Positions 12,339 to 49,187 of a stretch of DNA of 64,000 nucleotides are shown here, one piece after another (positions within the stretch are counted from its first letter, which is position 1; every line of letters begins with the position of its first letter). The translations under genes and the position numbers were made by a program. Source of the DNA: an uncultured Mycoplasmatota bacterium (GTDB lineage Bacteria; Bacillota_I; Bacilli_A; RF39; UBA660); contig CAMJMP010000001.1 of assembly GCA_946407055.1 (NCBI GenBank), positions 6,847-70,846 on the forward strand. The letters are read 5' to 3'. The notes under the pieces are model-generated. The model was not told the origin of the DNA, did no database searches, and saw only the letters and a list, made by a program, of their open reading frames with translations.

Positions 12339-13127
12339 TTGATTACTATGGAATTAAAACTTGAAGAATTACTAAAGGGTAAAGCAACTCGAATTAAGGA
12401 AAATGACTTTTTTCCAACTGCAGCTTATGTAGAACCATTTATAGAAAGAATGTCTAAATTCACTTCTGATTTTAGAATTGAGGCAAAACTCCCAGATCAA
12501 ATTACTAAGACTTCTAATGGAGATATTAATTATGATGATATTACCTATAATCGTGTTTGGATTCAAGCAGTGATGCCTGAAGAATATGCTTTTGACAATC
12601 ACGATGAAGTTGTTGGTATGGTATATGGTTTAGATTGTCGCAAACCAATTGTAAAGTTATACAGAGGTGGTCTTAATAGAGCTTGTACTAATCTTTGTGT
12701 ATTCGATCCTTCTTTTCTACATATTCAAGAAATTGAAGCAGAAAAGCCATTTAATTATAAACCTATTCGTCAAATGATGGAGCAAACTTGTGACCTTAAA
12801 GCATGGCTTAATAAACTTCACACTACTTCATTTGCTACTGATTATGTTTCAATAAATGAATCACTTGGCGAGTGGATTCGTAATTCTATTGCTCTATCTT
12901 ACGATAACGGATTTGGAAAAGTTAAATTAAGTGCGACAAATATAATTGATACATATAAAGATCTTTTTGAGAAAAAAGATTCGCCTTATTATGTCGGTGA
13001 AGGAAACGATACTACAATGTTTAATGTATATAATGCATTTACCCAACAAATCACTGACGATAAACGAGATATTATGAATAAAGTAGAGAAAACTTTACTT
13101 ATTAAAGATATTCTTGGTTCCTTCTAA
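12339..13127 (+). CDS. Hypothetical protein
   Basis: 262-aa ORF. Confidence 0.4.
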   Translation: MITMELKLEELLKGKATRIKENDFFPTAAYVEPFIERMSKFTSDFRIEAKLPDQITKTSNGDINYDDITYNRVWIQAVMPEEYAFDNHDEVVGMVYGLDCRKPIVKLYRGGLNRACTNLCVFDPSFLHIQEIEAEKPFNYKPIRQMMEQTCDLKAWLNKLHTTSFATDYVSINESLGEWIRNSIALSYDNGFGKVKLSATNIIDTYKDLFEKKDSPYYVGEGNDTTMFNVYNAFTQQITDDKRDIMNKVEKTLLIKDILGSF

Positions 13128-13187
13128 AATAATTTGTTTAAGTGAGAATTAATGTGTATATTAGTTTTCACTTAAATATAAAAAATA

Positions 13188-15341
13188 ATGGATATAAAAG
13201 TAATTAACAAATGCGGTATTTTAGAAGATTTCGATCCACAGAGAATTGCAACTGCAATTCGAAAGAGTGCTAGTCGAGTGTTTGTGGATCTTACTGATGA
13301 CGATTGTAAAAAAGTATCAGATTACGTATATTCTACTTTAACTGAGAATGTTCCAGTTAAAACACTTCATAATATAGTAGAATGTGCATTAGATCATTGT
13401 GGTTTTAATTCAGTTGCAGAATCTTATCGTAGTTATCGTAACTATAAAACTGATATTAAAGAAATTTGGGAAGCGGTAATTAATAAAGAAATAGAATTAG
13501 ATTCTCAACCAGATCATTCTAATGCTAATTGTAATTCACAGTTAGTATCTACTAAAGGTATTCTTACTTATGGTGAGTTCCTTAAAGAATCTTATATGAG
13601 ATTCTTCTTAACACCAGAAGAAAGAAAAGCTGTAAATGAAGGATTTATTTACCCACATGATATGAAAGACCGATATAGAACATATAATTGTTGTTTATTA
13701 AATGTTGGTCGTATTATGAAAGGTGGATTTACTCTTGAAAATATGCCTTATACAGAACCAGGCAGTGTAGCTGCTGCGATAGCAGTTGCATCTGATATTA
13801 TAAGCGTTACTGCAGGAAATCAATATGGTGGTCTTACTTGGCCTCAAGTTGATGAGGATTTATCTTATTACTGTCAAAAATCATATAATTTTTATATTAA
13901 AGAATATAGTAATATTATAGGAGATGCTGGTTGTGGTGTAGACCCTCGTAAAGCAGATGACTATGCTTATAAAAAAGTAAAGAGAGAAATACAGCAAGGT
14001 TATCAAGGTATCGAACATACATTTAACAGTGTTTCATCTTGTAGAGGTGATTTTCCATTTATTAGTTTTAGTTTTGGTAACGGAACTGACAGATGGTCTA
14101 AACTTGTAAGTCAAACTATTCTTGAAACAAGAATGGGTGGTCAAGGTAAACCTGGTGGTAAAACACCTGTATTATTCCCTAAACTTATCTTTACTTATAG
14201 AGATGAGATACACGGAAAAGGTGGTATATCTGAAGATTTATTTGATTTAGCTGCTAAATGTTCTAAAGATACAATGTATCCTGATTTCTTAAGTCTTGAT
14301 GCTGGTTATGTTGGTAATATGTATAAGAAGACAGGCAAGATTATAACCATGATGGGTTGTAGAGCGTGTCTATCTCCTGATTATAATGAAGATGGAGAAC
14401 TTCTTATAAACAGATGTAATATGGGAGTTATTTCTCTCAATTTACCTATGTTCTATCAAAAGGCTAAATTAGAAAACAAAACTTTTTATGAAGTATTTGA
14501 TTATTACTTTGAATTAGCAAGACAAATTAATCTTAGAACTATTGAATATCTGAAAAGAAAACTTAAAGGAGCAAGTAGTCCACTTGCATTTATGGAAGGT
14601 GGATTTGATGATGGTTATGTTGGACCAAATGATTCTGTAGCTCCAATTCTTAAACATTCAACTATAAGTTTCGGTTATGGTGGTCTTAGTGAATTACAAA
14701 CTTTATATAATAAGGATCATAACATTGAAACTCATTACTATGAAGATTGTAATTTTGCTAAAGAAGTAATGACTTATTTTAATGATAAAGTAGAAGAAAT
14801 TAAGAAATCTGACAATGTACTTTATGCAATTTATGGAACTCCAGGTGAATCTTGGCTTCCACGTGCTTGTGATCAATTTGTTGAAATGTATGGACAAATT
14901 GAAGGAGTAACAGAAAAAGGTTTCTTCTCTAATTCATTCCATATTAACGTTGATGAAGACGTAACACCTATTGAGAAGATTAATTTTGAAAATCAATTCT
15001 TCCCATTATCTAAAGGTGGTTCAATTTGTCACGTTAAAATTCCTTCTATTTCTGATGAAATGTTAGAAGGTGTTAAAGCCATTATTCGTCATGCTATGAA
15101 AATTGGTAACTATCAATCTGTAAATCACGCAGCTAATAGATGTACTGATTGCGGACACCATTGGATTGGTGATGATAGTATGCCTTATGAACAGAACTAT
15201 AGATGTCCTGTTTGTGGTAGTATGAACACTGTCGGAATTCGTAGAATGAATGGTTATCTTGGATATTCTAAAACAATACTCGGAGTTAATAAATTTAACA
15301 AAGGTAAAATTAAAGAATTTAAACTAAGAAAAAATCTATAA
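13188..15341 (+). CDS. nrdD: Anaerobic ribonucleoside-triphosphate reductase (class III)
   Basis: N-terminal ATP-cone-like segment, C-terminal zinc ribbon 'CTDCGH...CPVCGS', and the glycyl-radical motif 'RRMNGYLGY'. Confidence 0.85.
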   Translation: MDIKVINKCGILEDFDPQRIATAIRKSASRVFVDLTDDDCKKVSDYVYSTLTENVPVKTLHNIVECALDHCGFNSVAESYRSYRNYKTDIKEIWEAVINKEIELDSQPDHSNANCNSQLVSTKGILTYGEFLKESYMRFFLTPEERKAVNEGFIYPHDMKDRYRTYNCCLLNVGRIMKGGFTLENMPYTEPGSVAAAIAVASDIISVTAGNQYGGLTWPQVDEDLSYYCQKSYNFYIKEYSNIIGDAGCGVDPRKADDYAYKKVKREIQQGYQGIEHTFNSVSSCRGDFPFISFSFGNGTDRWSKLVSQTILETRMGGQGKPGGKTPVLFPKLIFTYRDEIHGKGGISEDLFDLAAKCSKDTMYPDFLSLDAGYVGNMYKKTGKIITMMGCRACLSPDYNEDGELLINRCNMGVISLNLPMFYQKAKLENKTFYEVFDYYFELARQINLRTIEYLKRKLKGASSPLAFMEGGFDDGYVGPNDSVAPILKHSTISFGYGGLSELQTLYNKDHNIETHYYEDCNFAKEVMTYFNDKVEEIKKSDNVLYAIYGTPGESWLPRACDQFVEMYGQIEGVTEKGFFSNSFHINVDEDVTPIEKINFENQFFPLSKGGSICHVKIPSISDEMLEGVKAIIRHAMKIGNYQSVNHAANRCTDCGHHWIGDDSMPYEQNYRCPVCGSMNTVGIRRMNGYLGYSKTILGVNKFNKGKIKEFKLRKNL

Positions 15342-15541
15342 TGAAAAAATATACAGTAAGATTTTTGGTACAAGCTAAAATATTAGATTGTATAACAGCA
15401 GAAGTAGAAACAGAATCTGAAGATGAAATTTTAGACGAATTAAAGGATGGTAACTATAAAATATTGGATAGTTATGACTCTGATTATTCTTCAGATCCTG
15501 AATCAATTACTAGTTTTGAATTTTTAAGCGACATTAAGTAA
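15341..15541 (+). CDS. Hypothetical small acidic protein
   Basis: 66-aa ORF overlapping the nrdD stop (ATGA). Confidence 0.35.
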   Translation: MKKYTVRFLVQAKILDCITAEVETESEDEILDELKDGNYKILDSYDSDYSSDPESITSFEFLSDIK

Positions 15542-15997: not shown

Positions 15998-16162
15998 ATG
16001 AAAAAGTACAATAAACCTACAATGAAAGTACATACTTGTGCTTTATCAAATGAAGTATTAAGATGCTGTTGCTGTGGAAGTGGATGTTGTGGTGGACGTT
16101 ATGGAAGAGCAAAAGCAATAGATTCTGATTTCGAGGATACAAACTTGATTAATAATGAGTAA
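15998..16162 (+). CDS. Cysteine-rich small protein (54 aa, 'RCCCCGSGCCGG')
   Basis: ORF not in the supplied track because it is under 60 aa; cysteine cluster; overlaps the next gene. Confidence 0.3.
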   Translation: MKKYNKPTMKVHTCALSNEVLRCCCCGSGCCGGRYGRAKAIDSDFEDTNLINNE

Positions 16163-17293: not shown

Positions 17294-17893
17294 ATGAAAC
17301 ATATTATTATTGTTGATTGTCAAGAGGATTTTTGCAATCCAGAAGGTGCACTTTATGTAAAAGGTGCTGAAGTAGCAGTTGAGAACATTAAAAAGTATCT
17401 TGAATCATTAAAAGATGAAAAGGATACTGTAAATGTTATATTTACAGTGGATTGGCATCCTCTTACTCATTGTTCTTTTAAAGAGAATGGTGGTCAGTGG
17501 CCTGTTCATTGTGTTAAATATACAAAAGGTTCTAATATTGTAGAACCTTTGATAAAAGCAGCATATTCAATACAGAAATATCCTGAAATCATCAAGAAGG
17601 GTTCTGATGAAAACAAGGAAGAATATGGAGCATTTGCACACTTTATCAATGAATTTTTATCTAATGGTGAAGTTGAATTCAAAGTAAACGGTGATAATTT
17701 TGATTATATAAGTTTCTATAGAGAAGACGATGAATTTATCATTTGTGGTGTAGCAGGTGATTATTGTGTTTATGAAACATATAAGAATCTTAAATGTATT
17801 GGTATGAATATAACTCCATATTATGATGGTATCGCTTTCATTGGTGAGAAATTTGATTTTGAAAAGCAATTTGAACTTGAATCTGAAGAATAA
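17294..17893 (+). CDS. pncA: Nicotinamidase / isochorismatase-family hydrolase
   Basis: 'IIVDCQEDFCNPEGAL', 'DWHPLTHCSF', 'WPVHCV' and 'ICGVAGDYCV' align with PncA catalytic and metal-binding blocks. Confidence 0.7.
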   Translation: MKHIIIVDCQEDFCNPEGALYVKGAEVAVENIKKYLESLKDEKDTVNVIFTVDWHPLTHCSFKENGGQWPVHCVKYTKGSNIVEPLIKAAYSIQKYPEIIKKGSDENKEEYGAFAHFINEFLSNGEVEFKVNGDNFDYISFYREDDEFIICGVAGDYCVYETYKNLKCIGMNITPYYDGIAFIGEKFDFEKQFELESEE

Positions 17894-18477
17894 TGAAAAA
17901 TCAACCTTGTTATGATATAGAAGGCAATCCAATAGGATGGCTTTCTCGTTCTGTTTGTGTAGTAACTCTTATTGTTGCTAAAGTAAAAGGTAAATACTAT
18001 GTTCTTGCATCACAAAGAGGTAAAGGAACTCCAGATCCAGAATTTGTTGGATCTTGGAACTTATGTTGTGGTTATCTTGATTATAATGAAACATTAAGAC
18101 ACGCTGCAACTCGTGAATTATTTGAAGAAACAGGTGTTATTGTTAAACCTGATAATTTAGTATTTTATAAAATCAATGATGATCCTTTTGGCGATAAACG
18201 TCAAAATATAACATTTAGATATTTCTATTTGTTAAAACGTGATTATCTTCCTACTACAACTAATTCTTATAGTGAAACAGATGAAGTTGAAAAAATTGAA
18301 TGGATTCCTATTGAAAAGATTAATAACTTTAAATGGGCATTTAATCATAAGGAATTGGTTAATGAAATGCTAGATTATTATATATTTAAAAATAATCTTT
18401 CTTTATGGCAACGCATAAGTACAAAGGTAAAGAATATGAAATCCAAACTGGTAAAAAAGGTGGTCAGTTCTTTGTAG
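17893..18477 (+). CDS. Nudix hydrolase
   Basis: Nudix box 'LRHAATRELFEETGV'. Confidence 0.75.
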   Translation: MKNQPCYDIEGNPIGWLSRSVCVVTLIVAKVKGKYYVLASQRGKGTPDPEFVGSWNLCCGYLDYNETLRHAATRELFEETGVIVKPDNLVFYKINDDPFGDKRQNITFRYFYLLKRDYLPTTTNSYSETDEVEKIEWIPIEKINNFKWAFNHKELVNEMLDYYIFKNNLSLWQRISTKVKNMKSKLVKKVVSSL

Positions 18478-18749
18478 ATGATGAAGGCAAAAAGCATTAT
18501 CTAAAATCAGCTACACCTACAGTTAAAAAGAAAAAGAAGTCTACAGAAGCTATTAAAAAAGAAGAAGAATTTAAGGACTTCTTAAAAAGATACATTTGTT
18601 ATTATAGGAAAGTAGATGATAATGGAGAAATAATTGATGATTTCAAAGAATGGACTGATGCTAATTCGTATGATGAAGCACAAAGACATTTTGAAAATGA
18701 ATATCGTCATGATCCAAGTATTAAAATCGACTTAATAATGAGAGAATGA
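18405..18749 (+). CDS. Hypothetical lysine-rich protein
   Basis: 114-aa ORF overlapping the end of the Nudix gene. Confidence 0.3.
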   Translation: MATHKYKGKEYEIQTGKKGGQFFVDDEGKKHYLKSATPTVKKKKKSTEAIKKEEEFKDFLKRYICYYRKVDDNGEIIDDFKEWTDANSYDEAQRHFENEYRHDPSIKIDLIMRE

Positions 18750-18815
18750 ATACATTCGCTTGTATACTATTTATTATGTTAATAATCGGATTCCTTGGGT
18801 TCGGTTATTATTTAA

Positions 18816-20226: not shown

Positions 20227-20638
20227 AAAGTATATTCATTTTGGATACTTATATTTAAAATATAGAGGATTCAAAAAGAATAAACAAAGAATGTCACGAT
20301 GTGAAGCTATGATTAAATCGTTTCTTTCACATAGTGACGTTCTGTTTAAATCTCAATATCATATAAAACTCCCACGTGGTATTAGAAAAACTAACAATGC
20401 TTATATAGATTTTATGGTTTTTAAAGATAATAAGAGAATTGCAATTGAATATAATGGTGAACAACATTATAAATTCTCTAATTATTTTCATAAAACATAT
20501 GACAAGTATTTAGAACAGCGTAAACGTGATATTGCTGTTATGGATTGGTGTAATAAACGTAATATTACGTTTTTAGAAATACCTTATACTTGGACAGATG
20601 ACGAAATTATTTCTAAAATTAAAGAAGTCATTGAATGA
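20201..20638 (+). CDS. DUF559/Vsr-like PD-(D/E)xK endonuclease-domain protein
   Basis: 'IDFMVF...IAIEYNGEQHY' matches the DUF559 core (IAIExDG..H). Confidence 0.45.
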   Translation: MMKGLKRIKKYIHFGYLYLKYRGFKKNKQRMSRCEAMIKSFLSHSDVLFKSQYHIKLPRGIRKTNNAYIDFMVFKDNKRIAIEYNGEQHYKFSNYFHKTYDKYLEQRKRDIAVMDWCNKRNITFLEIPYTWTDDEIISKIKEVIE

Positions 20639-21819
20639 ATACACTTATTACTAAAGACGCTAAAGGTAAAATTAGAGTTGCTGAATTTGAAAAAACCCTA
20701 TTGGATGATGGAAGTTATTTAATTACAAGAGTAACATATCAATATGGAGGAAAACGAACTCAGCAACCAGACATTATAATTTCTGAAGGAAAAGCTAAGA
20801 GAACTGTTAGTGAACAGGCTGAACTTAAATTTAATTCTTTAATTAAAGAAAAACTTGATAAAGGATATAAACCAATTGATAATCCTATTGATACTTATAC
20901 TTCTGAAGAATTAAATAGTATAGTAGGAGAAATTGTAACTGACTCTAACGGTTTTGCTAAACATATGTTAGCTAAACAAGCTGATAAAGTTTCCGATAGA
21001 ACAATTAATAAACCTGAATTTTGGTATGCTAGTCGTAAAATAGATGGTGTACGTTGTTCATTCTATTGGAAAGACGGAGAAATTCATACAGCATCTCGTG
21101 GAGGTGGTCATTATGATTATTCTACTTATCAATTAAGAACTAATCCAGAATTTATTGAGTTCTTTAAAAATAATCCAAATATTATACTTGATGGAGAACT
21201 TTACAAACATGGAAAATCTTTACAACAAATTTCGGGAGCTGCACGAATGGAGAAAACTGCTGATGGTTGCGACTGGCTCGAATATTACATTTATGATGTC
21301 ATGGAACCAAAACCTTTCTCCGAGCGACTTCAAACACTCAATAGAATCAGCCTCGAACTCAATTTGGGATTTGATCCAAACAGGGTCTGGTCCGATAACG
21401 ATTTACGCGTACAAATGGTTCCGCAAGAAAAGGTTTCTGGCAAAGAGAATATTATCGCGCTCCATGATAAATATGTTGCAGAAGGTTGGGAAGGATGTGT
21501 TGTTCGAGATCCTAAAGGATTATATAAGAATGGTGGACGTGGATCTGAAATGATTAAGTTCAAAATGTATCAAGATGCAGAGTTTGAAATCACAGGTATA
21601 TCTGAAGGACTTAGAGATGAAGATATGTGTTTTACATTAAAAACTGCTGATGGAATTGAATTTAAAGCTAAGCCAATGGGTTCTCGTGAACTTAAAGACC
21701 AATATCGTAAAGACCTCGATGAACTTATAGGTAAAATGGCTACTGTTAAATTCTTCTATTATAGTGATGATGGAACACCATTACAACCTGTATTAAAAGC
21801 AATTAGAGACTATGAGTAA
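20635..21819 (+). CDS. ATP-dependent DNA ligase
   Basis: Motif I 'SRKIDGVR' with the adenylated lysine, motif III 'ILDGELY', motif IV 'EGCVVRDP' and motif V 'IKFK'. Confidence 0.8.
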   Translation: MNTLITKDAKGKIRVAEFEKTLLDDGSYLITRVTYQYGGKRTQQPDIIISEGKAKRTVSEQAELKFNSLIKEKLDKGYKPIDNPIDTYTSEELNSIVGEIVTDSNGFAKHMLAKQADKVSDRTINKPEFWYASRKIDGVRCSFYWKDGEIHTASRGGGHYDYSTYQLRTNPEFIEFFKNNPNIILDGELYKHGKSLQQISGAARMEKTADGCDWLEYYIYDVMEPKPFSERLQTLNRISLELNLGFDPNRVWSDNDLRVQMVPQEKVSGKENIIALHDKYVAEGWEGCVVRDPKGLYKNGGRGSEMIKFKMYQDAEFEITGISEGLRDEDMCFTLKTADGIEFKAKPMGSRELKDQYRKDLDELIGKMATVKFFYYSDDGTPLQPVLKAIRDYE

Positions 21820-23582: not shown

Positions 23583-23774
23583 ATGTTATACGAAGTAAGT
23601 GTAGAAACAAGAGGTGAATGGGTAGAGAAAACTAGCTATTTAGTAGAAGCTGAAAGTGAAGAAGAAGCTTTGGATAAATACTATAACGGAGATGTAGATG
23701 AAACAGATAGCCACCGTGACGAGTGGGAAAATTGGACATCTGAACCTGACGTTGTAGCGTGTGAAAACGAATAA
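23583..23774 (+). CDS. Hypothetical small acidic protein
   Basis: 63-aa ORF. Confidence 0.35.
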   Translation: MLYEVSVETRGEWVEKTSYLVEAESEEEALDKYYNGDVDETDSHRDEWENWTSEPDVVACENE

Positions 23775-24697
23775 TGAAACCATTTAAAATAACTCAGTCT
23801 ATTACTAATAAAGATGATATATCTATTAAAAATTATTTTAGAGATATATCTAAAATACCTTTATTAACGAAAGAAGAAGAGTTAGAATTAGGTTATATAA
23901 TTCAAAATAACCTTAAGAAATTAAATAATTCAGAAGAATTATCTTTACAAGAAAAACGATTAACTGAAATAGAAATTAATAAAGCAGTTAATAAACTTGT
24001 AAGTGCTAATTTAAAATTTGTTATTTCTGTAGCAAAACAGTATTGTAATCAAGGTTTACCTTTCATTGATTTAGTAAATGAAGGTAATCTTGGTATGATA
24101 CAAGCAGCTAAAAAGTTCGATCCTAATAAAGGATATAAATTTATAAGTTATGCAGTATGGTGGATTAGACAATTCATAATGCAAGCGATAGCTTTAAAAA
24201 GTAGAACTATTAAAACACCTGTAAATCAATCTGCTTCTTTATCTAAACTTAATAACGCAGTTAATAAGTTCGAACAATTAAATGGAATTAAACCTTCTTA
24301 TGAAGAATTATCTAAATTAACAGGAATATCGGTTGAAAAAATAAACAAGATTTATAGTTATAATTCAAGCTGTATTTCTGTTGATACTCCATTTACTACA
24401 GAAGAAGACTCTGGTTGTTTACTTGATGTTGTTAGAAATCCAAATTGTGAAGATTCTGATAAAAATCTAATGGATTCTTCTTTAAAACAAGATATAAATA
24501 GAGTTTTAGATAAGTTATCTCCTCGCGAAAAAGTAATATTACAAATGTTTTTCGGAATAGATTGTGATGCAATGCAGTTAGATCAAATAGCTCCTAAGTT
24601 CGGAGTTACATCAGAGAGAATAAGACAGATTAAAGATAAAGCAATAGAACAGATTATTGTAAAATATAAATCTATCTTAAAAACATATATTATATGA
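23774..24697 (+). CDS. Sigma-70 family RNA polymerase sigma factor (RpoD-like, lacks region 1.1)
   Basis: Region 2 'IDLVNEGNLGMIQAAKKFDPNKGYKFISYAVWWIRQ' and region 4.2 'LDQIAPKFGVTSERIRQIKDKA'. Confidence 0.85.
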   Translation: MKPFKITQSITNKDDISIKNYFRDISKIPLLTKEEELELGYIIQNNLKKLNNSEELSLQEKRLTEIEINKAVNKLVSANLKFVISVAKQYCNQGLPFIDLVNEGNLGMIQAAKKFDPNKGYKFISYAVWWIRQFIMQAIALKSRTIKTPVNQSASLSKLNNAVNKFEQLNGIKPSYEELSKLTGISVEKINKIYSYNSSCISVDTPFTTEEDSGCLLDVVRNPNCEDSDKNLMDSSLKQDINRVLDKLSPREKVILQMFFGIDCDAMQLDQIAPKFGVTSERIRQIKDKAIEQIIVKYKSILKTYII

Positions 24698-24933
24698 GTG
24701 ATAATGTAAATCATCCTTCACATTATGCATCTGGTAGTATTGAATGTATTGATGCTATGATTGCTGCATATGGTTTAAAAGCAGTAATGGATTTTTGTAA
24801 ATGTAATGCTTTTAAATATCAATGGAGATTTGAAAATAAAAACGGAGAAGAAGATCTCAAGAAAGCTCAATGGTATCAAAATAAATATATTGAACTTAAA
24901 CATATTGAACTTAAAGAAACTGCGTTGAAATGA
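24694..24933 (+). CDS. Hypothetical small cysteine-containing protein
   Basis: 79-aa ORF. Confidence 0.35.
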   Translation: MSDNVNHPSHYASGSIECIDAMIAAYGLKAVMDFCKCNAFKYQWRFENKNGEEDLKKAQWYQNKYIELKHIELKETALK

Positions 24934-25897
24934 TATTAGAAGTATACGATTTAGAATGTTTAGCTAATGTTTTTACGTATACAGGTTATGCTCCAAAAAC
25001 TAAAGAATGGTTTCAATTTGTAATTTGTAATTGGCGAAATGACTATGATAAATTAATTGAGCATTTAAAAAGAGACAAACTTATTATGGTAGGATTTAAT
25101 AACGAGAGTTATGATTATCCATTATTACATCATGTGATTAAACATTATGACGAATACAAAAAATTAAGTGGAAATATTGTTGCTCAAAAATTATATAATA
25201 AATCTCAAGAAATAATAAATCAACAATTCAGTGCAATTGCTGATAAGAATAAATTTATTCCTCAAATTGATTTGTTTAGAATATGGCATTATAATAATGC
25301 TGCACGTTCTACCTCATTGAAGGATCTTGAGATTTGTATGAGAATGGAAAATGTGGAAGAAATGCCTATACACCATACTCATTGGTGTAAACCAGGTGAC
25401 GAAATATGTATTTTGGATTACAATAAAAACGATGTTTGGGCAACTTATTTATTTTTAAATGTAACTTTAGGTCGAACTGATTATTCAATCTATAAAGGAA
25501 AGAATAAAATTGAACTTAGAGAGAAAATTAATAAAAAATTCAATGTTAATGTTATAAACATGGGTGACGTTCCTATGGGAGAGGAATTAATGCTTACTTT
25601 GTATTCAAGAAAAGTAGGTATTCCAAAGTACGTTATCAAACAACGTGGAGGAACTCACCGTTCTACAATAAACTTAAAAGATTGTATTCCATATTGGTGT
25701 AAAATTGAATCTCCAGAGTTTAAAAACTTTTTAAATCAAATTCAAAATAAAACAATTAGAGGAGTTAAAGGAGAATTTCAATATTCTGTAATATTCCATA
25801 ATTATAAATTTGATTTTGGTCTTGGAGGAAGTCATGGATGTTGTGAACCTAAAGTATGGGAATCCAATAAAGATTGGGTAATTGTAGACTATGATGT
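24930..25897 (+). CDS. Family B DNA polymerase, exon 1 (N-terminal and 3'-5' exonuclease domain; 3' boundary approximate)
   Basis: Exo I 'YDLECL', Exo II 'FNNESYDYPLL' and Exo III 'YNKNDVWATY'. The ORF stops at 25919 with no polymerase domain. Confidence 0.6.
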
Positions 25898-26251
25898 TGG
25901 ATTAAAGTGGTCCAACTAAAATGGAAATAAATTGCGGGGAGTCCCTTAGAGACTTAATCACGGCACTAAATAGTAATATATTAGGTAGCAGTAAAGTTAA
26001 CGCTTTACGGATCGTAAAAGCATTAAGTATTGGGTAATCACATCAAAACGCAGCCAAGCTTCCAATTTTTGGAAGAAGGTTCAACGACTATCCTTTTTAG
26101 GAGTAGGGTACAACTGATAACTGTATCCGAAAAATTTCCAAAATTATTTGGATATAACCTTAATTTTAAAAGGTAAATTCGCAAATAATTTGTGATATAG
26201 TCTGAACTAATAGGGAAAACCTATTGACTTATATACAATCATTTATCTTAG
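25898..26251 (+). mobile_element. ORF-less group I intron in the DNA polymerase gene (boundaries approximate)
   Basis: 'AAATTGCGGGGAGTCCC' (compare Tetrahymena 'AAAUUGCGGGAAAGGGGUC'), 'ACGCAGCCAAGC', 'GTTCAACGACTATCC', and 'GATATAGTCTGAAC' followed by a P9-like hairpin. No ORF is present. Confidence 0.6.
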
Positions 26252-27224
26252 TATATATAACACAATTACACTATATCCTAGTATAAGTAAATCTCTTAAA
26301 TTATATCCTGAACATCTTGGTCCTGTATTCAATGAACAATATATAGGGTTTATTGATACTAGATTAAATGAAAAACATAAAGCAAAAGAATTAAGGGATA
26401 ATGTTCTTATTGAAGGATATAAACTTATTCTTAATGGAACATACGGTAAAAGTAAGGAAGAAACTTCTTTCTTATACGATCCATTGTATACATTTAAAAC
26501 AACAGTAGCAGGTCAATTATTTATTTGTATGTGGGCTGAACGTTGGGTTAAAGTTTGTCCACGATTAAAGTTCATACAAACAAATACTGATGGTCAAACT
26601 ATTTATATTCCTCGTGAAGATATAGATAAGATACGTGCTGTAAACGAACAACTTACAGCAGAAACAGGTCTTACTATTGAAGAAGTTGTCTATAAAAAGA
26701 TGATAGTGCGTGATGTGAATAATTACATCGGCGTTTATGAGGATAATGAAAAAGACCACGAACACATTAAGCTAAAAGGTGATTATGAAGTTGATAAAGA
26801 ATTCCATAAAGACCCTTCTATGCGTATTGTGCCTTTTGCTGTTAAAAACTATTTTGTATATGGAATTCCTGTAGAAGAAACCATTAAAAATCATAAAAAT
26901 ATATTTGATTTCTGTCTAAGATTAAAAACTAATGCAAAAAGTACTCCTTATTTTAGACATCTTAACGAAAATTCTGAAATCGTAAATGATAAACTTGATA
27001 GAACAACTCGTTATTATGTTTCTAATAGAGGTGGAAACTTGTATAAAGATTTTGGAGATAGACAAACTGGTGTAAACGTAGGATTTTCAGTTACAATTTT
27101 TAATCAATATGTTGAAAAACCTTTCGAGGAATACGACATTGATTATAGATTTTATATTGTTGAAGCTAAAAAATTAATAACTTCAATAGAAACAAAACAA
27201 TTAACTTTATTCGATTTATTTTAA
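26252..27224 (+). CDS. Family B DNA polymerase, exon 2 (palm and thumb; 5' boundary approximate)
   Basis: The frame is open from 26214 with no start codon until a TTG at 26484. It encodes motif A-like 'TLYPSI', motif B 'KLILNGTYGK' and motif C-like 'TNTDGQ'. Confidence 0.55.
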
Positions 27225-30674: not shown

Positions 30675-30860
30675 ATGAAAATATTTTTGATTAACGTTTT
30701 ATTTCTTATATTTGGAATATATTTTAGTATTATATCATTATTTATTATATTAGGTAAATGGTTATTACAATTTATTCCAGAATCATGGGAAATTCCAGAA
30801 GACGAACCTTGGAAAATTAATCTTAAATTAGCTGATTTTGTTGAAAATGAAATTAAATAA
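30675..30860 (+). CDS. Small membrane protein
   Basis: ATG at 30675; transmembrane helix 'IFLINVLFLIFGIYFSIISLFIIL'. Confidence 0.3.
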   Translation: MKIFLINVLFLIFGIYFSIISLFIILGKWLLQFIPESWEIPEDEPWKINLKLADFVENEIK

Positions 30861-31482
30861 TTTAATAAATGATTTTGGTGATGGATCAAATGTATATTTT
30901 ACATCTGATACACACTTTGGTCATAAATCTATAATAGAATGTACCCATAGACCGTTTTCAAATACTGTTGAAATGGATACAGCAATAATTGCATTGTGGA
31001 ATGAGACAGTAGGACCTAATGATATTATATTTCATTTAGGTGACTTTTGTTGGAATGGTGCACAAAAGTGGGTAGAAATTCTTAAACAGTTAAATGGAGT
31101 AAAATATTTAATTGTCGGAAATCACGATGTAAAACGTTTGAAAGGAAATGTTTTACAATATTTTGAAGATATTAAATATCAAACGACTCTTTTAATAGAC
31201 GATTGGCATTTATATCTTAATCACTATCCTTTTCTTTGTTTTGGTGGAACATATCGTAAAGGTGCAAAAGTAGCACAAGCATTTGGTCATGTTCATTATG
31301 AAAAACTAAGTCAAGGATTAGATGTAGATAGACTTAATTATCTATTTCCAGCACAATATGATGTTGGTGTAGATAATAATTATTTCTGTCCAATTAGTTG
31401 GAAAGAATTAAAAGATAAATTCGAAAAGCAAATTAATGCTGATTGTAACATGAGGCATTATAAACCTTTAGAATTTGAATGA
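30847..31482 (+). CDS. Calcineurin-like metallophosphoesterase
   Basis: 'YFTSDTHFGH', 'HLGDF' and 'GNHD' metal-binding motifs. Confidence 0.6.
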   Translation: MKLNNLINDFGDGSNVYFTSDTHFGHKSIIECTHRPFSNTVEMDTAIIALWNETVGPNDIIFHLGDFCWNGAQKWVEILKQLNGVKYLIVGNHDVKRLKGNVLQYFEDIKYQTTLLIDDWHLYLNHYPFLCFGGTYRKGAKVAQAFGHVHYEKLSQGLDVDRLNYLFPAQYDVGVDNNYFCPISWKELKDKFEKQINADCNMRHYKPLEFE

Positions 31483-31624: not shown

Positions 31625-32221
31625 ATGATTGAATTTAGATTAAATTTTTATATTAAATCTCTTTTAGCGGGTGTATTAATTGGATTAGGAGATATTATTT
31701 ATGTAGTATCTGAAAATCATATACTCGGTGCATTTTTATTTTCACTCGGACTTTTAACAATTCTTATTAAAGAATATCCTCTTTATACAGGAAGGGTGGG
31801 GTACATAAAAAATTACGATGATTTTGTAGATTGTTCACCAATGATTCTTTTCAATTTCATTGGTATAGCTTTAGTGTGCGGTTTTGCTAATATTACTAAT
31901 CTTGATTTATCTGCGGTAAATATGATAGTTAGTAATAAGCTACATCAAGAATGGTATAGTACTCTATTCTTATCATGGGGATGTGGAGCAATGATGTATT
32001 TTGCAGTAAATGGATGGAAGAAAACAGGAAATCCAATTGCAGTTATCATGCCTATTATGTTCTTCATACTTTGTGGCTTTGAGCATTGTATTGCTGATTA
32101 TGGATATTTTATGATGTATAAGTTCAAAGAAGCTATAGATTTTGATTATCATGCTGGAATGTTTATTTTAATAGCAATTGTAGGTAATGCTTTAGGAAGT
32201 TTAACATTTAGTAAAATTTAA
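31625..32221 (+). CDS. Formate/nitrite transporter (FNT) family channel protein
   Basis: 'SLGLLTIL...LYTG', 'ILCGFEHCIADY' (compare the FocA signature 'ASGFEHSIANM') and 'IVGNALGSL' (compare 'IGNIIGG'); multiple transmembrane helices. Confidence 0.55.
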   Translation: MIEFRLNFYIKSLLAGVLIGLGDIIYVVSENHILGAFLFSLGLLTILIKEYPLYTGRVGYIKNYDDFVDCSPMILFNFIGIALVCGFANITNLDLSAVNMIVSNKLHQEWYSTLFLSWGCGAMMYFAVNGWKKTGNPIAVIMPIMFFILCGFEHCIADYGYFMMYKFKEAIDFDYHAGMFILIAIVGNALGSLTFSKI

Positions 32222-32224
32222 TAA

Positions 32225-32737
32225 ATGGATATTGCAAATAAAAACGTACTATTTTTCGACCTTGATGGAACAATAATAAATACTATATCTGGAAAGACAT
32301 TTCCAGCTGGTGTTTGGGATATGGAAATTGATCTTAGAGTATTAAGTACATTAGACAAACTTAAACCAGAATATATATTTATTGTATCAAATCAAGGAGG
32401 AATCGAAAAAGGATTTGTAAATCGAAAATCTTTTGCTGCTAAATTTGAATATGTAAAGCAAGCAATTTTTGATTATTTAGGTGATACTAATATAATCGTA
32501 GATGGTATGTATTGTACCAATGATGATAAAGCTAATGAATACAGAAAACCTAATATAGCAATGCTTGAAACATTACTTAGAAAATATAGCATTTTAAATA
32601 CTAAAGAAACAATGCTAATGGTAGGTGATGCTTCGGGTAAACCTGGGGATTTTTCAGATTCTGATAAGAAGACTGCCAAAAATTTCGGTATAGATTATCT
32701 CGATGTAGAAGATTTTATTTCTTTATTTAATAATTAA
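32225..32737 (+). CDS. HAD-IIIA family phosphatase (polynucleotide 3'-phosphatase / GmhB-like)
   Basis: 'VLFFDLDGTIINT' motif I, 'VSNQGGIEKGF' motif II (compare 'TNQSGIGRG') and 'MVGDASGK' motif III/IV. Confidence 0.55.
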   Translation: MDIANKNVLFFDLDGTIINTISGKTFPAGVWDMEIDLRVLSTLDKLKPEYIFIVSNQGGIEKGFVNRKSFAAKFEYVKQAIFDYLGDTNIIVDGMYCTNDDKANEYRKPNIAMLETLLRKYSILNTKETMLMVGDASGKPGDFSDSDKKTAKNFGIDYLDVEDFISLFNN

Positions 32738-32743
32738 AATTTT

Positions 32744-33190
32744 ATGAAGTATATTGGTATTAAAATAATAGACGCTGTTCCTATGACAGCAGAAGAAGCA
32801 ATTAGACGTGGTTATTATCAAATAAATGGTAATAAAGGTGACGGTTATGAAATAACTTATGAAGAAGGATATAAGTATTGGTTTCCTAAAGAAATATTTG
32901 AGGAACATTATCATGAAATCAAAAACAAAGAACTTGCAGAAACTGCTAAGTTAATGGTTTCTTCTGATTATAAAGAGAGATTTAGAGCTGAGTGTATTCA
33001 ACTCGAGAATCGTTATGAAGGTCTTAAGAAAATGGTTGAAAGTTGGGATAATGGTACATTACCTTTTACTCCTACTTGTCCTAGAGAAATTTACGACGAG
33101 CAACTTGCAGCTATGAGAGCTTATATGAAAGTTCTTACTGAGCGTGCTCATATAGAAAATATACCTATATATAATGAAAATACTATTTAA
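32744..33190 (+). CDS. Hypothetical protein
   Basis: 148-aa ORF. Confidence 0.4.
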   Translation: MKYIGIKIIDAVPMTAEEAIRRGYYQINGNKGDGYEITYEEGYKYWFPKEIFEEHYHEIKNKELAETAKLMVSSDYKERFRAECIQLENRYEGLKKMVESWDNGTLPFTPTCPREIYDEQLAAMRAYMKVLTERAHIENIPIYNENTI

Positions 33191-35596: not shown

Positions 35597-35878
35597 ATGA
35601 AAGTACAAATTAGACATGGTCTTTTTGAAACAAATTCATCTTCTGTGCACAGTTTAACTATTGTGCCAGAAAGTGAAATTGATAAATGGAGAGAAGGAAA
35701 GCTTTTCTATAGTTATGACGAAGATCGACTAATTCCTATTTCAGAAATAGAGAATTATGATCCAGATTGGATATCAAATTTTGAAGATTTTGGTGATGAA
35801 TATGAAACCTTCTTTGAAAAGTATACTTCTCCATCTGGTGATAAAATAGTAGCATTTGGTTATTACGGACACGATTAA
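35597..35878 (+). CDS. Paralog 2 of the 'QIRxxLFETNSSSxHS' family
   Basis: N-terminus 'MKVQIRHGLFETNSSSVHSLT'. Confidence 0.5.
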   Translation: MKVQIRHGLFETNSSSVHSLTIVPESEIDKWREGKLFYSYDEDRLIPISEIENYDPDWISNFEDFGDEYETFFEKYTSPSGDKIVAFGYYGHD

Positions 35879-35879
35879 T

Positions 35880-36362
35880 ATGAAAGTACAAATAAGACGA
35901 GGTCTTTTCGAGACCAATTCAAGTTCAGTACATACTCTTGTTATTGGAAATCATGGACAAAATATTTACGAGGATCTTCCCAAAGAAATAAAATTTGAAC
36001 TGGAACCAATTGATTATTGTTCTCCTGATACTGTACAAAAGAAAGCTAATTTCCTTTATAGGCAAATAATAGCTTTTTCTGATGATACAGTAGAAGACAT
36101 GAATAAAATCAAAAAGTATCTTCAAGAATTTAATATAAAGTGTATCTTTACTAATCCTCTTGAATATCCTTTCTTTAGAGATGTTATTAACGATATATAT
36201 GATATATCAGATTTTCTAATTGATATTCTTGAGAATAGTACAACACTAATGAACTATCTTTTCAGTGAAGATTCATACATTGGTTGTTACGATAACAATT
36301 ATTGGGAAGAGCAAATAGTAAAGCCAACAAATTTAATAAAGTTTAATATTGAAGACGTATGA
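35880..36362 (+). CDS. Paralog 3 of the 'QIRxxLFETNSSSxHS' family
   Basis: N-terminus 'MKVQIRRGLFETNSSSVHTLV'. Confidence 0.5.
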   Translation: MKVQIRRGLFETNSSSVHTLVIGNHGQNIYEDLPKEIKFELEPIDYCSPDTVQKKANFLYRQIIAFSDDTVEDMNKIKKYLQEFNIKCIFTNPLEYPFFRDVINDIYDISDFLIDILENSTTLMNYLFSEDSYIGCYDNNYWEEQIVKPTNLIKFNIEDV

Positions 36363-36844
36363 AACAACAAATTAGACGTAATCTCTTTGAAACTAATTCA
36401 AGTTCTGTACATAGTATTGTAATTACTAAAGAACCATTAAGTAATATTCCAAAAAGTTTATGTATAGTAAGGAAGGAATTTGGATGGGAAAATAGAATAT
36501 ATCATGATATTGAGGATAGAGTATCATATCTTTATACAGGTATACTTGAATGTTTTAAAAACGATGAACAAGAAAGATATATCAATAAACTAATTAAGTT
36601 TCTTGAAAAACTTGGAGTGGAAGTAGAAATTGATCATGATAATGATAGTGATTGGTATGGAATTGATCATGTTTATGAACTTATAGACTTTATAAAAGAT
36701 ATTTTCAATGATGAAGATTATCTTTTTAACTATCTATTTTCACCTACATCGTATATAATGACAGGAAATGATAATGAAGATCCTAATCCTTATGATGATG
36801 AAGTACCAGATAATACAATTTATCATTATATAAAAAGTAATTAA
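36359..36844 (+). CDS. Paralog 4 of the 'QIRxxLFETNSSSxHS' family
   Basis: N-terminus 'MKQQIRRNLFETNSSSVHSIV'; its start overlaps the paralog 3 stop (ATGA). Confidence 0.5.
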   Translation: MKQQIRRNLFETNSSSVHSIVITKEPLSNIPKSLCIVRKEFGWENRIYHDIEDRVSYLYTGILECFKNDEQERYINKLIKFLEKLGVEVEIDHDNDSDWYGIDHVYELIDFIKDIFNDEDYLFNYLFSPTSYIMTGNDNEDPNPYDDEVPDNTIYHYIKSN

Positions 36845-37181: not shown

Positions 37182-37928
37182 ATGGCATACTTTTATGAAT
37201 CTCATGAACATACTGCCAAAATGGAAGAGTTGTTCAGTAAAGAAATTAAAAATTGTATTAATAATACAAGTGTATATCGTGTTATGTCGGATTTTAATCC
37301 GACTAACATAGATATTACAGTAGAAGCTTTAACAACATCTGATGCAATTACTAAATACAAAGATTCAAAAAGACTTTGTTGTTTAAATTTTGCTTCTTTC
37401 CGACATCCTGGAGGTAGTTTTGGTTATAAAGAAGTACATCTTGCACAAGAAGAATGGATTTGTAAAGATTCATTCCTTTACAACATATTAAAGGAATTTA
37501 AAAACGAATATGTTAAAAATAGTTTTTGTAATAATTATGATTTATACGAAAACTTTGCATTATATTCTCCAGACGTTGTTTTTGTAGACACAGAATACAA
37601 TCCAATTGCTAAGTGTGATGTTCTTACTTGTGCTGCACCTAACGCTAAGGTTGCTCGTAAAAACTATAATGTAGATACTAAAGATATTGAACACGCAATG
37701 CGTCAACGTATTGATTTTGTTCTATCAACAGCAAAAGCACAAGGAGTTAAGACTTTCATTCTTGGAGCTTTTGGTTGTGGAGTATTTGAAAATGATCCTA
37801 CTTTTGTATCACAGACTTTTAAACATTTGTTAGATACCAAGGATTACGGTTTTGAAAAAATTATTTTCGCTATTCCAGGTGGTCCTAATCTTAAAGCTTT
37901 TCAAAAAACATTTTATACAAAATATTAA
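37182..37928 (+). CDS. Macrodomain-fold PARG-like (DUF2263/TIGR02452-like) ADP-ribose-processing protein
   Basis: 'HPGGSFGYKEVHLAQEE' matches the bacterial PARG signature GGG-x6-8-QEE, and the 'ILGAFGCGVFENDP' diphosphate-binding loop is present; start set at the ATG at 37182. Confidence 0.55.
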   Translation: MAYFYESHEHTAKMEELFSKEIKNCINNTSVYRVMSDFNPTNIDITVEALTTSDAITKYKDSKRLCCLNFASFRHPGGSFGYKEVHLAQEEWICKDSFLYNILKEFKNEYVKNSFCNNYDLYENFALYSPDVVFVDTEYNPIAKCDVLTCAAPNAKVARKNYNVDTKDIEHAMRQRIDFVLSTAKAQGVKTFILGAFGCGVFENDPTFVSQTFKHLLDTKDYGFEKIIFAIPGGPNLKAFQKTFYTKY

Positions 37929-45520: not shown

Positions 45521-45916
45521 ATGAATAAAGTATTTTTAGGAGGTACTTGTAATGAAAGTACTTGGAGAAATGAACTAATTCCATTGTTAAAAATTGATTA
45601 TTTTAATCCTGTTGTAGAAGATTGGACACCAGAATGTCAAGCAGAAGAGGAATATCAAAAGAATGAAGAATGTAATTATCATCTTTATGTTATTACTCCG
45701 AAAATGACAGGAGTATTTTCTATTGCAGAAGTAATAGAGTCTGCTATTACAAGAAATGATAAAGCTATATTTTGTATTATTCTTAAAGATGGAGACCTTG
45801 AATTTACTAAAGAACAAATTAAGTCACTAAATGCTGTTGGTAATATGGTTAAGAAGTATAACGGCATTTGGTGTCAATCTTTAGAAGAAATAGCAAACTA
45901 TTTAAATAATATCTAA
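45521..45916 (+). CDS. Nucleoside 2-deoxyribosyltransferase-like (Rossmann-like) protein
   Basis: N-terminal 'KVFLGGTCNESTWR..LIPLL' resembles the NDT/DNPH1-family nucleotide-binding loop. Confidence 0.35.
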   Translation: MNKVFLGGTCNESTWRNELIPLLKIDYFNPVVEDWTPECQAEEEYQKNEECNYHLYVITPKMTGVFSIAEVIESAITRNDKAIFCIILKDGDLEFTKEQIKSLNAVGNMVKKYNGIWCQSLEEIANYLNNI

Positions 45917-48096: not shown

Positions 48097-48507
48097 ATGT
48101 GTTTAACAAGATCAAACATGAATTGTGGTCCTAGATATGCAACTGAGGACATAATTTGTTATAAGATATTATATAAATTTAATAAAGGTATATATTGTTC
48201 TCCTTATATGAAGTTTCCATATAAGTTAAATGAACGTATATCATCTGATTTTAGTTTTGTATCTCTTCCTCCAGTAAAGATGTCTCCACAAAAAGAATAT
48301 AAGTTTATTAGAATTTTAACATATTTTAGACAAGTAAACAAAGGTTTACATTCGTTTAAATATTTAATAGATGCTAATAAATTTAATAATCGTTTTCTGG
48401 GAGGGACAGTTATGAAATGTATAATACCAAAAGGAAGTTGGTATTATGAAGGAAGAGGTGATGAATTAGTTTCTGATAATATAATAATAATTGAAGAAAG
48501 TAAATGA
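48097..48507 (+). CDS. Hypothetical protein
   Basis: 136-aa ORF. Confidence 0.35.
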   Translation: MCLTRSNMNCGPRYATEDIICYKILYKFNKGIYCSPYMKFPYKLNERISSDFSFVSLPPVKMSPQKEYKFIRILTYFRQVNKGLHSFKYLIDANKFNNRFLGGTVMKCIIPKGSWYYEGRGDELVSDNIIIIEESK

Positions 48508-49187
48508 AAATATTAATAACAAGTGATTTACATGGTTTTCTTCCATATATTGATCAACCAGCAGATTTATTATTAATCTGTGGTGATATTGTTCCGTTAT
48601 CTGTTCAATCAAACGGACATAAATCAAAAGTTTGGTTTAGAGATGTATTTAAAAAATGGGCAGAAGAACTTCCTGTAGACAAAGTAATATTTATTGCAGG
48701 AAATCATGATTGGTTTCCTTATTGGGATGAAGGAACAAAATTAAGAAATCTATTTCCACATGATTCTAAAGTTACATATATTCAAGATGAACTTTATGAA
48801 TATAAAGGAATTAAAATATATGGAACTCCTTGGTGTAAACAATTTTATAATTGGGCATTTAATCTTAATGAAGAAGGATTGAAAGAAAAATATTCTCAAA
48901 TTCCAGAAGGTATAGATATATTAATTACGCATGATGCTCCAAATCAAAATGAAGTTGGAATGATTCACGATGGAATATATAAAGGAGAAGATGCAAGTAA
49001 TTATATTCTTACTGATATAATTAAACAGAAAGCTCCAAAATATTGTTTCTGTGGACATATTCATTCTGGAAATCATCTTTCAAAAGAAATAGATGGAATT
49101 ACATTTGCAAATTGTTCTTATGTAAATGAACAATATGTACCTGTTAATGATTTACATATTTTATATATAGATGACAAAGACGCTTAG
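48504..49187 (+). CDS. Calcineurin-like metallophosphoesterase
   Basis: 'ILITSDLHGF', 'GDIVP', 'GNHDW' and 'GHIHSG'. Confidence 0.6.
   Translation: MKILITSDLHGFLPYIDQPADLLLICGDIVPLSVQSNGHKSKVWFRDVFKKWAEELPVDKVIFIAGNHDWFPYWDEGTKLRNLFPHDSKVTYIQDELYEYKGIKIYGTPWCKQFYNWAFNLNEEGLKEKYSQIPEGIDILITHDAPNQNEVGMIHDGIYKGEDASNYILTDIIKQKAPKYCFCGHIHSGNHLSKEIDGITFANCSYVNEQYVPVNDLHILYIDDKDA

Follow-up and report, generated by a model that had tools for sequence, protein, structure and literature searches.

Why would a large phage carry a nicotinamidase gene and a Nudix hydrolase gene back to back, and what would the two enzymes do for it during infection? This question is raised by a pair of genes on the + strand of a 64,000-nucleotide stretch of DNA (hereafter the window) that comes from a large uncultured gut or rumen phage with a genome of ca. 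181 kb. The depletion of nicotinamide adenine dinucleotide (NAD+) is a major anti-phage strategy of bacteria, and three phage pathways that reconstitute this cofactor have been shown experimentally, none of which takes the deamidating route via nicotinate. A preliminary description of the window had reported two adjacent genes at positions 17294-18477, and both open reading frames (ORFs) indeed lie at exactly these coordinates. With a probability of roughly 55%, we propose that they encode a coupled two-enzyme unit recycling the breakdown products of NAD+, i.e., a reduced form of a phage Preiss-Handler module, which would likely sustain viral replication when NAD+ is cleaved.

The upstream gene encodes a predicted nicotinamidase

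The upstream gene (17294-17893, + strand, 199 aa) is pncA-like, and its product matches the Isochorismatase family of Pfam (PF00857, E=6.2e-12) above the gathering score, with 46.4 bits vs. a cut-off of 27. It contains the two catalytic blocks already pointed out in the preliminary description, WPVHCV (aa 69-74) and GVAGDYCV (aa 152-159), as well as a DWH motif at aa 53. The top NCBIfam model is the nicotinamidase/pyrazinamidase equivalog NF008623 (E=4.1e-17), whose cut-off is missed with 62.7 vs. 174 bits, as fits a divergent phage clade rather than a close orthologue. When the protein was compared to the PDB using phmmer, seven of the eight matches were nicotinamidases (from Leishmania, Pyrococcus, yeast, M. 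tuberculosis, Acinetobacter, and Drosophila), with a weak match to the cysteine hydrolase 3irv (9.5e-05) as the eighth. Its AlphaFold2 (AF2) model (predicted local distance difference test, pLDDT, 91.5) retrieved nicotinamidases at Foldseek ranks 1-7, led by the Leishmania enzyme with bound nicotinate. The phage proteins form a clade of their own and share no more than ca. 30% identity with solved PncA structures.

In an alignment of 30 homologues with a mean identity of ca. 41%, the Asp-Lys-Cys triad D8/K102/C158 and the metal site D53/H55/H72 (Asp-x-His...His) are both invariant. D8 and D53/H55/H72 align with D10 and D52/H54/H71 of the P. horikoshii enzyme, and the residues of the metal site align with the DWH and WPRHCV motifs of 1ilw and 3r2j. 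It is this Asp-His-His metal site that sets nicotinamidases apart from other isochorismatase-like hydrolases. Based on sequence and modeled fold, the gene thus encodes a predicted nicotinamidase of a divergent, phage-specific clade, and a function can now be assigned to PHROG 19305, whose entry (phrog_19305) carries the label "unknown function".

The downstream gene encodes a stand-alone Nudix hydrolase close to ADP-ribose pyrophosphatases

The second gene (17893-18477, + strand, 194 aa) encodes a stand-alone Nudix hydrolase that matches PF00293 with E=1.5e-17 and 64.3 bits vs. a cut-off of 21.1. The canonical Nudix box that had been noticed before, GYLDYNETLRHAATRELFEETGV at aa 60-82, is a perfect match to the GX5EX7REUXEEXGU consensus, and its residues G60, E66, R74, E75, E78, E79, and G81 are invariant in an alignment of 36 homologues. 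Three methods agree on the closest known proteins. Among the NCBIfam models, the ADP-ribose-responsive regulator NrtR and the bifunctional NadM-Nudix rank first. A PDB search with a profile of the 36 homologues was led by 2fml, 3i9x, 2qjt, and 3gz8, i.e., NrtR-family proteins such as 2fml and Shewanella NrtR together with the Francisella nicotinamide mononucleotide adenylyltransferase (NMNAT)/ADP-ribose pyrophosphatase (2qjt/2r5w). The AF2 model (pLDDT 88.3) found the Nudix domain of NrtR in complex with ADP-ribose (3gz8) and 2fml as its first structural neighbors in Foldseek, followed by the NadM-Nudix structures 2qjt/2r5w/2qjo.

The phage protein itself is neither NadM nor NrtR: the adenylyltransferase domain of the former and the winged helix-turn-helix (wHTH) domain of the latter are both absent, identity to the Nudix domains of either is ca. 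21-24%, and the phage proteins again form their own clade. In the window lineage only, the protein ends in a basic helical tail of 35 residues (ca. 160-194). Proline P98 is at least 90% conserved among the 36 homologues and lies 16 residues after the Nudix box, an offset that we take to be the spacing of the marker proline of ADP-ribose diphosphatases. A downstream proline of this kind was described by Dunn et al. as a marker of "some ADP-ribose diphosphatases" (as cited in PMC5389931), and we consider P98 as suggestive only. Within the NrtR/NadM-type clade, an intact Nudix signature goes along with ADP-ribose pyrophosphatase activity, whereas degenerate versions merely bind the ligand (PMC2330246). 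The predicted activity of the phage enzyme is therefore that of an ADP-ribose pyrophosphatase, which we infer from its position nearest to the NadM-Nudix/NrtR clade in all three comparisons.

Could this Nudix hydrolase have another target altogether, with its place beside pncA being incidental? It might then sanitize nucleotide pools (like MutT, NudI, or NUDT15), remove NAD caps from RNA (like NudC), or hydrolyze NAD(H) or nicotinate adenine dinucleotide (NaAD). Its Pfam match is generic, the weaker PDB matches include NUDT15, MutT, and NudJ, the neighboring genes belong to dNTP metabolism, and both T4 NudE and the Nudix domain of phage KVP40 are promiscuous (PMC9503650). However, NrtR and NadM-Nudix ranked first by each of the three methods, the SQPWPFPxS motif of NADH pyrophosphatases (as in PMC5389931) is absent from the sequence, and the gene stays inside an NAD+ synthesis module through at least six rearrangements in related phages (see below), unlike what one would expect of an unrelated sanitizing enzyme. 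We therefore regard a different target as very improbable. Membership of the pair in a defense system was rejected because PADLOC returned only a weak, generic Nudix match (PDC-S07, 8e-9).

The two genes are joined by a TAATG overlap (17891-17895, + strand) in which the stop codon of pncA and the start codon of the Nudix gene share one base, which suggests that their translation is coupled.

Related phages carry the pair within a predicted NAD+ salvage module

Scanning IMG/VR with the PncA alignment yielded 80 loci, the majority of them on contigs between 55 and 410 kb in length. The ORFs of related loci were called and clustered, neighbors within ±10 kb were counted over 86 loci, and PncA sequences were collapsed at 80% identity to give 34 lineages. 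The commonest neighbors of pncA are genes for the nicotinate phosphoribosyltransferase (NAPRTase) PncB in 71 of the 86 loci, for a Nudix hydrolase of the window type in 64, for the PP-loop NAD synthase NadE in 63, and for a NadD-like adenylyltransferase in 56. Counted per lineage, PncB is found in 26, NadE in 24, and NadD and Nudix in 19 each, and Pfam confirmed the identities of all four. These genes are usually ordered PncA-PncB-NadE-NadD-(small gene)-Nudix, though a phage with ca. 46-51% identity to ours has PncA-Nudix first, followed by PncB and a cytidylyltransferase-like (NadD-type) gene. As judged from their sequences, the modules of these relatives would make up a compact Preiss-Handler salvage pathway with all enzymes of the deamidating route from nicotinamide to NAD+, plus the Nudix hydrolase.

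The Nudix gene is kept inside this module across at least six gene orders. Its distance to pncA never exceeds 7.2 kb (median 4.3 kb) in the 63 loci where both genes are present, and in 14 loci from seven PncA lineages it directly abuts pncA with a 1-base or 4-base overlap, often of stop and start codons, or a gap of at most 18 bases. This retention close to pncA in spite of repeated rearrangement is strong contextual evidence that the Nudix hydrolase works in NAD+ metabolism. The genes of the window belong to the same families, as its PncA and Nudix proteins each share a single cluster (c0 and c2, respectively) with the module genes of the relatives, and the window Nudix protein matches a hidden Markov model (HMM) of the module Nudix family with 4.2e-70.

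The modules of the relatives display additional features of their own. Small conserved genes without Pfam match accompany some of them (e.g., at 12868-15394 of locus L007), namely c11 with a "GHRD" N-terminus, c12, and a SLOG-like family with the motif SGGAEGSDTMW; the latter is unrelated to PncA and was kept apart from the PncA cluster in the lineage counts. In one lineage, the active pncA copy is immediately preceded by a degenerate paralogue without the catalytic Cys motif (L004, 5445-5993). The PncB of locus L086 (7445-8575) has thousands of database matches at 75-98% identity, encoded on contigs of up to 525 kb, and some of these are contigs of jumbo phages such as the 376,291-bp contig of L043. 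This pattern suggests either a very recent spread among large phages or exchange with hosts. We had initially read these matches as bacterial, which would have implied acquisition from a host, and withdrew this view because several of the contig sizes match those of jumbo- or mega-phage contigs (as for L043). The 8000 matches listed at 75-98% identity include none on the contigs of the window phage (181 kb) and its 85%-identical relative (178 kb) described below.

The window holds a reduced two-gene form of the module

No gene for PncB, NadE, or NadD was found (E<=1) in a six-frame HMM search of the window and its flanks, which covered ca. -6.7 kb to +71.7 kb, i.e., ca. 78 kb of the ca. 181-kb genome, using models built from 56 PncB, 53 NadE, and 42 NadD phage sequences. 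Searches with tblastn were likewise negative. Pfam scans of 36 window ORFs detected no NAPRTase/Nampt, NMNAT, PRPS-like, CTP_transf_like, NadR, or PnuC domain, and the same domains are absent from precomputed annotations of genes identical or orthologous to those of the window. Since the later enzymes of the pathway are missing from these 78 kb, any "repair" of NAD+ by the window phage would depend on its host.

The closest relative with a full module (L086) carries it immediately upstream of a group of genes in synteny with the 29.9-32.7 kb region of the window. This slot is empty in the window, where the PncA-Nudix pair lies next to nrdDG instead. A layout with PncA and Nudix alone is found in three separate lineages (the window, L035, and L052), and in L052 the pair occupies the exact slot in which relatives hold the full module. 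Because the same two-gene layout occurs in three lineages, we read PncA-Nudix as a recurrent minimal core and, from its sequence relationships, as a reduced form of the five-gene module.

A proposed role in recycling NAD+ breakdown products

How could two enzymes from one end of a longer pathway benefit a phage? Nicotinamide and ADP-ribose are the products of SIR2, TIR, and SEFIR NADases as well as of ADP-ribosyl turnover. PncA would hydrolyze nicotinamide to ammonia and nicotinate, a step that must precede PncB, and the Nudix hydrolase would split free ADP-ribose into AMP and ribose-5-phosphate and thereby clear it. Nicotinate would then pass through PncB, NadD, and NadE, which are phage-encoded in most relatives and, as we infer, supplied by the host in the case of the window phage. 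AMP and ribose-5-phosphate could refill the ATP and phosphoribosyl pyrophosphate (PRPP) spent by these three enzymes. Overall, NAD+ would be rebuilt faster from its two breakdown products, nicotinamide and ADP-ribose, with the likeliest benefit that replication is kept going while the host's NAD+ pool is being cleaved.

Since the products of NADases are the inputs of the pair, and since phages counter NADases through the reconstitution pathways NARP1-3, counter-defense is the most attractive driver behind such a unit, and a role of this kind is plausible by analogy with these pathways. A stronger version of this idea would have the pair act as a self-standing minimal counter-defense unit and a fourth route of NAD+ reconstitution that turns both NADase products into substrates for the Preiss-Handler enzymes of the host. 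The five-gene form would then be a complete viral deamidating pathway with recycling of ADP-ribose, and both forms would rescue the phage from NAD+ depletion by SIR2-, TIR-, or DSR-type systems. We consider this extended version as possible but rather doubtful.

The same enzymes with the same chemistry could also serve a different selective driver. The pair or module might simply boost the recycling of pyridine nucleotides in a host that is poor in nicotinamide salvage and thus increase burst size, without any tie to NAD+-depleting defenses. The data suit this explanation as well as counter-defense: the pair is set within a block of nucleotide metabolism, with NrdD (anaerobic ribonucleotide reductase) and its activase NrdG on the 5' side, dUTPase and an ATP-dependent ligase on the 3' side, and ThyX; gut jumbo phages have been described with NAD+ synthesis clusters that complement host pathways (PMC11662467); and no defense-related family was matched beyond the generic PADLOC hit. 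Yet NARP1-3 have all been shown to act against NADase defenses, and the rapid divergence of the pair relative to its core neighbors (see below) is more in keeping with accessory or conflict genes than with housekeeping ones. On balance, we think that metabolic augmentation alone is unlikely to account for the locus.

Several points weigh against recycling of NAD+ breakdown products by the pair. The scores of all clade comparisons of the Nudix protein are modest, and those to the NrtR and NadM-Nudix models are far below the equivalog cut-offs (34.8 vs. 400 bits), so ADP-ribose specificity remains a prediction. The removal of nicotinamide would relieve the product inhibition of SIR2-type NADases, which is no help to the phage. 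The pair also cannot make NAD+ alone, as PncB, NadE, and NadD are absent from the ca. 78 kb examined, and the validity of the proline marker for the NadM-type clade is not stated in PMC5389931. Finally, both genes evolve quickly. Compared to an 85%-identical relative on a 178-kb contig (L001, 5402-6582), the ratio of nonsynonymous to synonymous substitution rates (dN/dS) is 0.46 for pncA and 0.67 for the Nudix gene vs. 0.03-0.16 for the flanking NrdD, NrdG, dUTPase, and ligase genes, which could reflect relaxed constraint. The nonsynonymous rates are 0.089 and 0.080 for pncA and Nudix vs. 0.002-0.016 for the neighbors at similar synonymous rates, which makes recombination from a distant source unlikely.

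Fast evolution is what one would expect if the pair were a decaying remnant, i.e., if PncB, NadE, and NadD had been lost from an ancestral five-gene module and the two remaining genes were disappearing under relaxed selection. The absence of these three genes from the window and its flanks would fit such a history, and so would the fact that L086 carries its module at another, syntenic site, which stands empty in the window. However, both ORFs are intact, the catalytic and metal-binding residues are kept in every member of the lineage, the genes occur in identical form on at least 13 contigs, and dN/dS is still below 1. The intact catalytic residues and the recurrence of the same two-gene subset in three lineages, with tight coupling of stop and start codons, argue against simple decay, and we hold this history to be quite improbable. 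The pair is an accessory unit on which selection is either relaxed or diversifying, and recycling of NAD+ breakdown products is the role that we favor for it.

Two further genes of the window and the ADP-ribose connection

Two other genes had been grouped with the pair in the preliminary description as one unusual set of enzymes handling NAD+ and ADP-ribose. Both are real: a microbial-type PARG-like macrodomain gene at 37182-37928 (+ strand; PF10021, E=7.8e-20) with a GGS-x10-QEE motif, and a nucleoside 2-deoxyribosyltransferase (NDT)-like gene at 45521-45916 (+ strand; PF15891 Nuc_deoxyri_tr2, E=1.4e-11). They lie 19 kb and 28 kb from the pair, respectively. No homologue of either was found near pncA in the 86 related loci, the scan of IMG/VR found no relatives of the PARG-like protein, and neither gene belongs to a PHROG or PADLOC family. 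We also considered the NDT-like gene as the counterpart of c11, c12, or the SLOG-like genes of the relatives and rejected this because HMMs of those families had no match in the window. The part of the earlier proposal that concerns NAD+ and ADP-ribose enzymes therefore stands for PncA and Nudix, given the module of the relatives and the NadM-Nudix/NrtR placement, while the grouping with the PARG-like and NDT-like genes is without support from synteny, and one functional set of all four genes is speculation.

The PARG-like gene also bears on whether the pair might clean up signals or ADP-ribosylation rather than feed NAD+ synthesis. The Nudix hydrolase would then destroy cyclic ADP-ribose (cADPR) isomers of Thoeris systems, His-ADPR, or ADP-ribose released by PARG, while PncA would pull cycles of ADP-ribosyltransferase and PARG forward. 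Besides the presence of the PARG-like gene in the same genome, this idea draws on the proposal by Aravind and colleagues that viral Nudix domains degrade ADP-ribose derivatives (PMC9503650) and on phage enzymes known to break down ADP-ribose-based signals while supplying NAD+ synthesis (RyDEP preprint). However, the same preprint calls cADPR isomers "exceptionally stable", with no degrading mechanism known before RyDEP, the Pfam scans of 36 window ORFs detected no ADP-ribosyltransferase, and the distant PARG-like gene shows no linkage to the module in any of the related loci. The linkage to PncB, NadE, and NadD indicates synthesis instead, and a clean-up function thus appears far-fetched to us.

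Genome setting and other features of the window

That the window is phage DNA, as assumed early on, is supported by PHROG matches, relatives in IMG/VR, and placement on a contig of 181,348 bp. This single ENA contig contains both an identical pncA and the LAGLIDADG gene of the far end of the window, at positions which imply that the window spans the ends of the contig; this fits a genome of ca. 181 kb that is circular or circularly permuted, with the window wrapping around the contig ends. The 85%-identical relative on the 178-kb contig has the same gene order as the window. No annotated close relative was found when 8 kb around the locus were compared by megablast to 50,697 phage records (0 matches), and the sole tblastn match of a 1002-aa protein from the structural region was to one unannotated faecal phage. 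The window has a G+C content of 29%, with genes encoded on the + strand until ca. 51.8 kb and on the - strand thereafter. Rfam and tRNA scans of the whole window found nothing, and a promoter scan did not rise above shuffled sequences.

In a different frame, the last 73 nt of the Nudix gene are shared with an uncalled ORF of 114 aa (18405-18749, + strand). This ORF shows 96.5% amino-acid identity in L001-L003 and a dN/dS of 0.16, i.e., it is more conserved than the Nudix gene itself, and it is missing from public gene calls and had no match in Pfam, PHROG, or PADLOC. This is probably a real gene of unknown function, and nothing ties it to the pair. Ca. 300 nt past the Nudix stop codon, a consensus scan located a terminator-like hairpin with a T-run (18780-18810, + strand) that possibly marks the end of the transcription unit; the scan found 4 sites vs. 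1.3 ± 1.0 expected, which is weak evidence. Upstream of the pair, a cysteine-rich ORF of 54 aa (…CCCCGSGCCGG…; 15998-16162, + strand) is located between nrdD and nrdG, a position that is kept in relatives.

Further features concern other aspects of phage biology. The DNA polymerase apparently comes in two + strand ORFs of the same cluster (phrog_1252) at 24930-25919 and 26529-27224 (329 and 231 aa), separated by ca. 600 bp. The same split is seen in the 181-kb contig and points to an intron or to a polymerase made of two parts. A domain related to crAss001_48 (PF21825, E=5e-17; 32744-33190, + strand) and a full sigma-70 family gene with regions 1.2-4 according to the precomputed Pfam annotation of an identical gene (23774-24697, + strand) hint at distant crAss-like kinship and phage-directed transcription. 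Three tandem paralogues with the N-terminus MKVQIR(R/H)GLFETNSSSVH (phrog_28997, function unknown) occupy 35597-36844 (+ strand), and an unusual auxiliary gene at 31625-32221 (+ strand) encodes a membrane protein of the formate/nitrite transporter family (PF01226, E=2.6e-16) without PHROG family. A scattered set for the repair of RNA or DNA ends comprises RtcB ligase, a PNK-type 3'-phosphatase (HAD), the ATP-dependent ligase, and two metallophosphoesterases (46719-48092, 32225-32737, 20635-21819, 30847-31482, and 48504-49187) and hints at the mending of tRNA or RNA cut by host defenses. On the - strand, two giant ORFs without Pfam match (57835-64000; compare L091, 3301-13870) flank the LAGLIDADG homing endonuclease gene (61000-61704). 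They measure 1002 aa and 2120 aa, the longer one continuing past the edge of the window, and further ORFs of 2285 and 487 aa lie beyond them. This region may represent a giant virion gene or an RNA polymerase-like gene that is interrupted by a mobile intron.

Comparison with known systems

Phages are known to counter NADase defenses by the NAD+ reconstitution pathways NARP1, NARP2, and NARP3 (10.1101/2024.02.11.579819; PMC13464706), none of whose gene sets was found among the Pfam domains of the 36 ORFs of the window. One parallel is NARP2, i.e., NadV and NatV of KVP40, comprising a nicotinamide phosphoribosyltransferase (Nampt) and an NMNAT-Nudix fusion. NARP2 is likewise a phage route from nicotinamide to NAD+ with an ADP-ribose pyrophosphatase Nudix domain of NadM type, the window Nudix protein is nearest to this clade, and the NadM of KVP40 type carries the same kind of Nudix domain, of which phage examples have been catalogued (PMC9503650). 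However, NARP2 is amidated (nicotinamide to nicotinamide mononucleotide to NAD+) with Nudix fused to the adenylyltransferase, whereas the window pair would be deamidating with a stand-alone Nudix hydrolase, and the Pfam scans of the window turned up neither a Nampt nor an NMNAT domain. NARP1 (Adps and Namat; 10.1101/2024.02.11.579819) is a two-gene phage unit with ADP-ribose and nicotinamide as inputs, just as predicted for the pair. Yet its enzymes are not homologous to PncA and Nudix, and it is self-sufficient in rejoining the two molecules via ADPR-PP, whereas the window pair is predicted to split ADP-ribose and deamidate nicotinamide and would need three further enzymes. NARP3 (PnuC and NadR; Sci Adv 2026, PMC13464706) is another two-gene unit for NAD+ restoration in phages, but it imports nicotinamide riboside for conversion to NAD+, and its proteins and precursor are unrelated to those of the pair.

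Clusters of pncB-nadD-nadE have been described computationally, without experiments, in gut jumbo phages (PMC11662467, Microbiome 2024). They follow the same pathway logic in the same ecosystem, the animal and human gut, and PncA and Nudix of the window have orthologues in the PncA-PncB-NadE-NadD-Nudix modules that we found on IMG/VR phage contigs of 100-410 kb. In contrast, the window phage with its ca. 181 kb is too small to count as a jumbo phage, and of the module genes, the 78 kb examined contain those for PncA and Nudix only; that study does not mention a Nudix component and refers to phage pncA in passing only. Among bacterial enzymes, PncA and the NadM-Nudix/NrtR clade have the same catalytic residues and folds as the phage pair, and pncA, pncB, and ADP-ribose-responsive Nudix proteins are genomically linked in bacteria, too (PMC2330246). 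The phage proteins differ by forming their own clades below the NCBIfam equivalog cut-offs, with a Nudix hydrolase that carries neither wHTH nor adenylyltransferase domain.

In the papers searched, we found no description of a nicotinamidase or an ADP-ribose-type Nudix hydrolase as a regular member of phage Preiss-Handler modules, of the module in phages below 200 kb, or of a recurring two-gene PncA-Nudix core. Together with its relatives, the locus suggests that the deamidating route is present in many large uncultured phages of the gut and rumen, that an ADP-ribose-type Nudix hydrolase is a regular part of it which earlier computational surveys had not noted, and that a two-gene core leaning on PncB, NadD, and NadE of the host recurs in three lineages. 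Phage NAD+ salvage and computationally identified Preiss-Handler clusters had already been reported, and next to them the pair is a modest variant. Its main value lies in providing testable candidate genes for a deamidating reconstitution of NAD+ against SIR2, TIR, and DSR defenses, alongside the amidated route of NARP2, the rejoining of ADP-ribose and nicotinamide by NARP1, and the import of nicotinamide riboside by NARP3.

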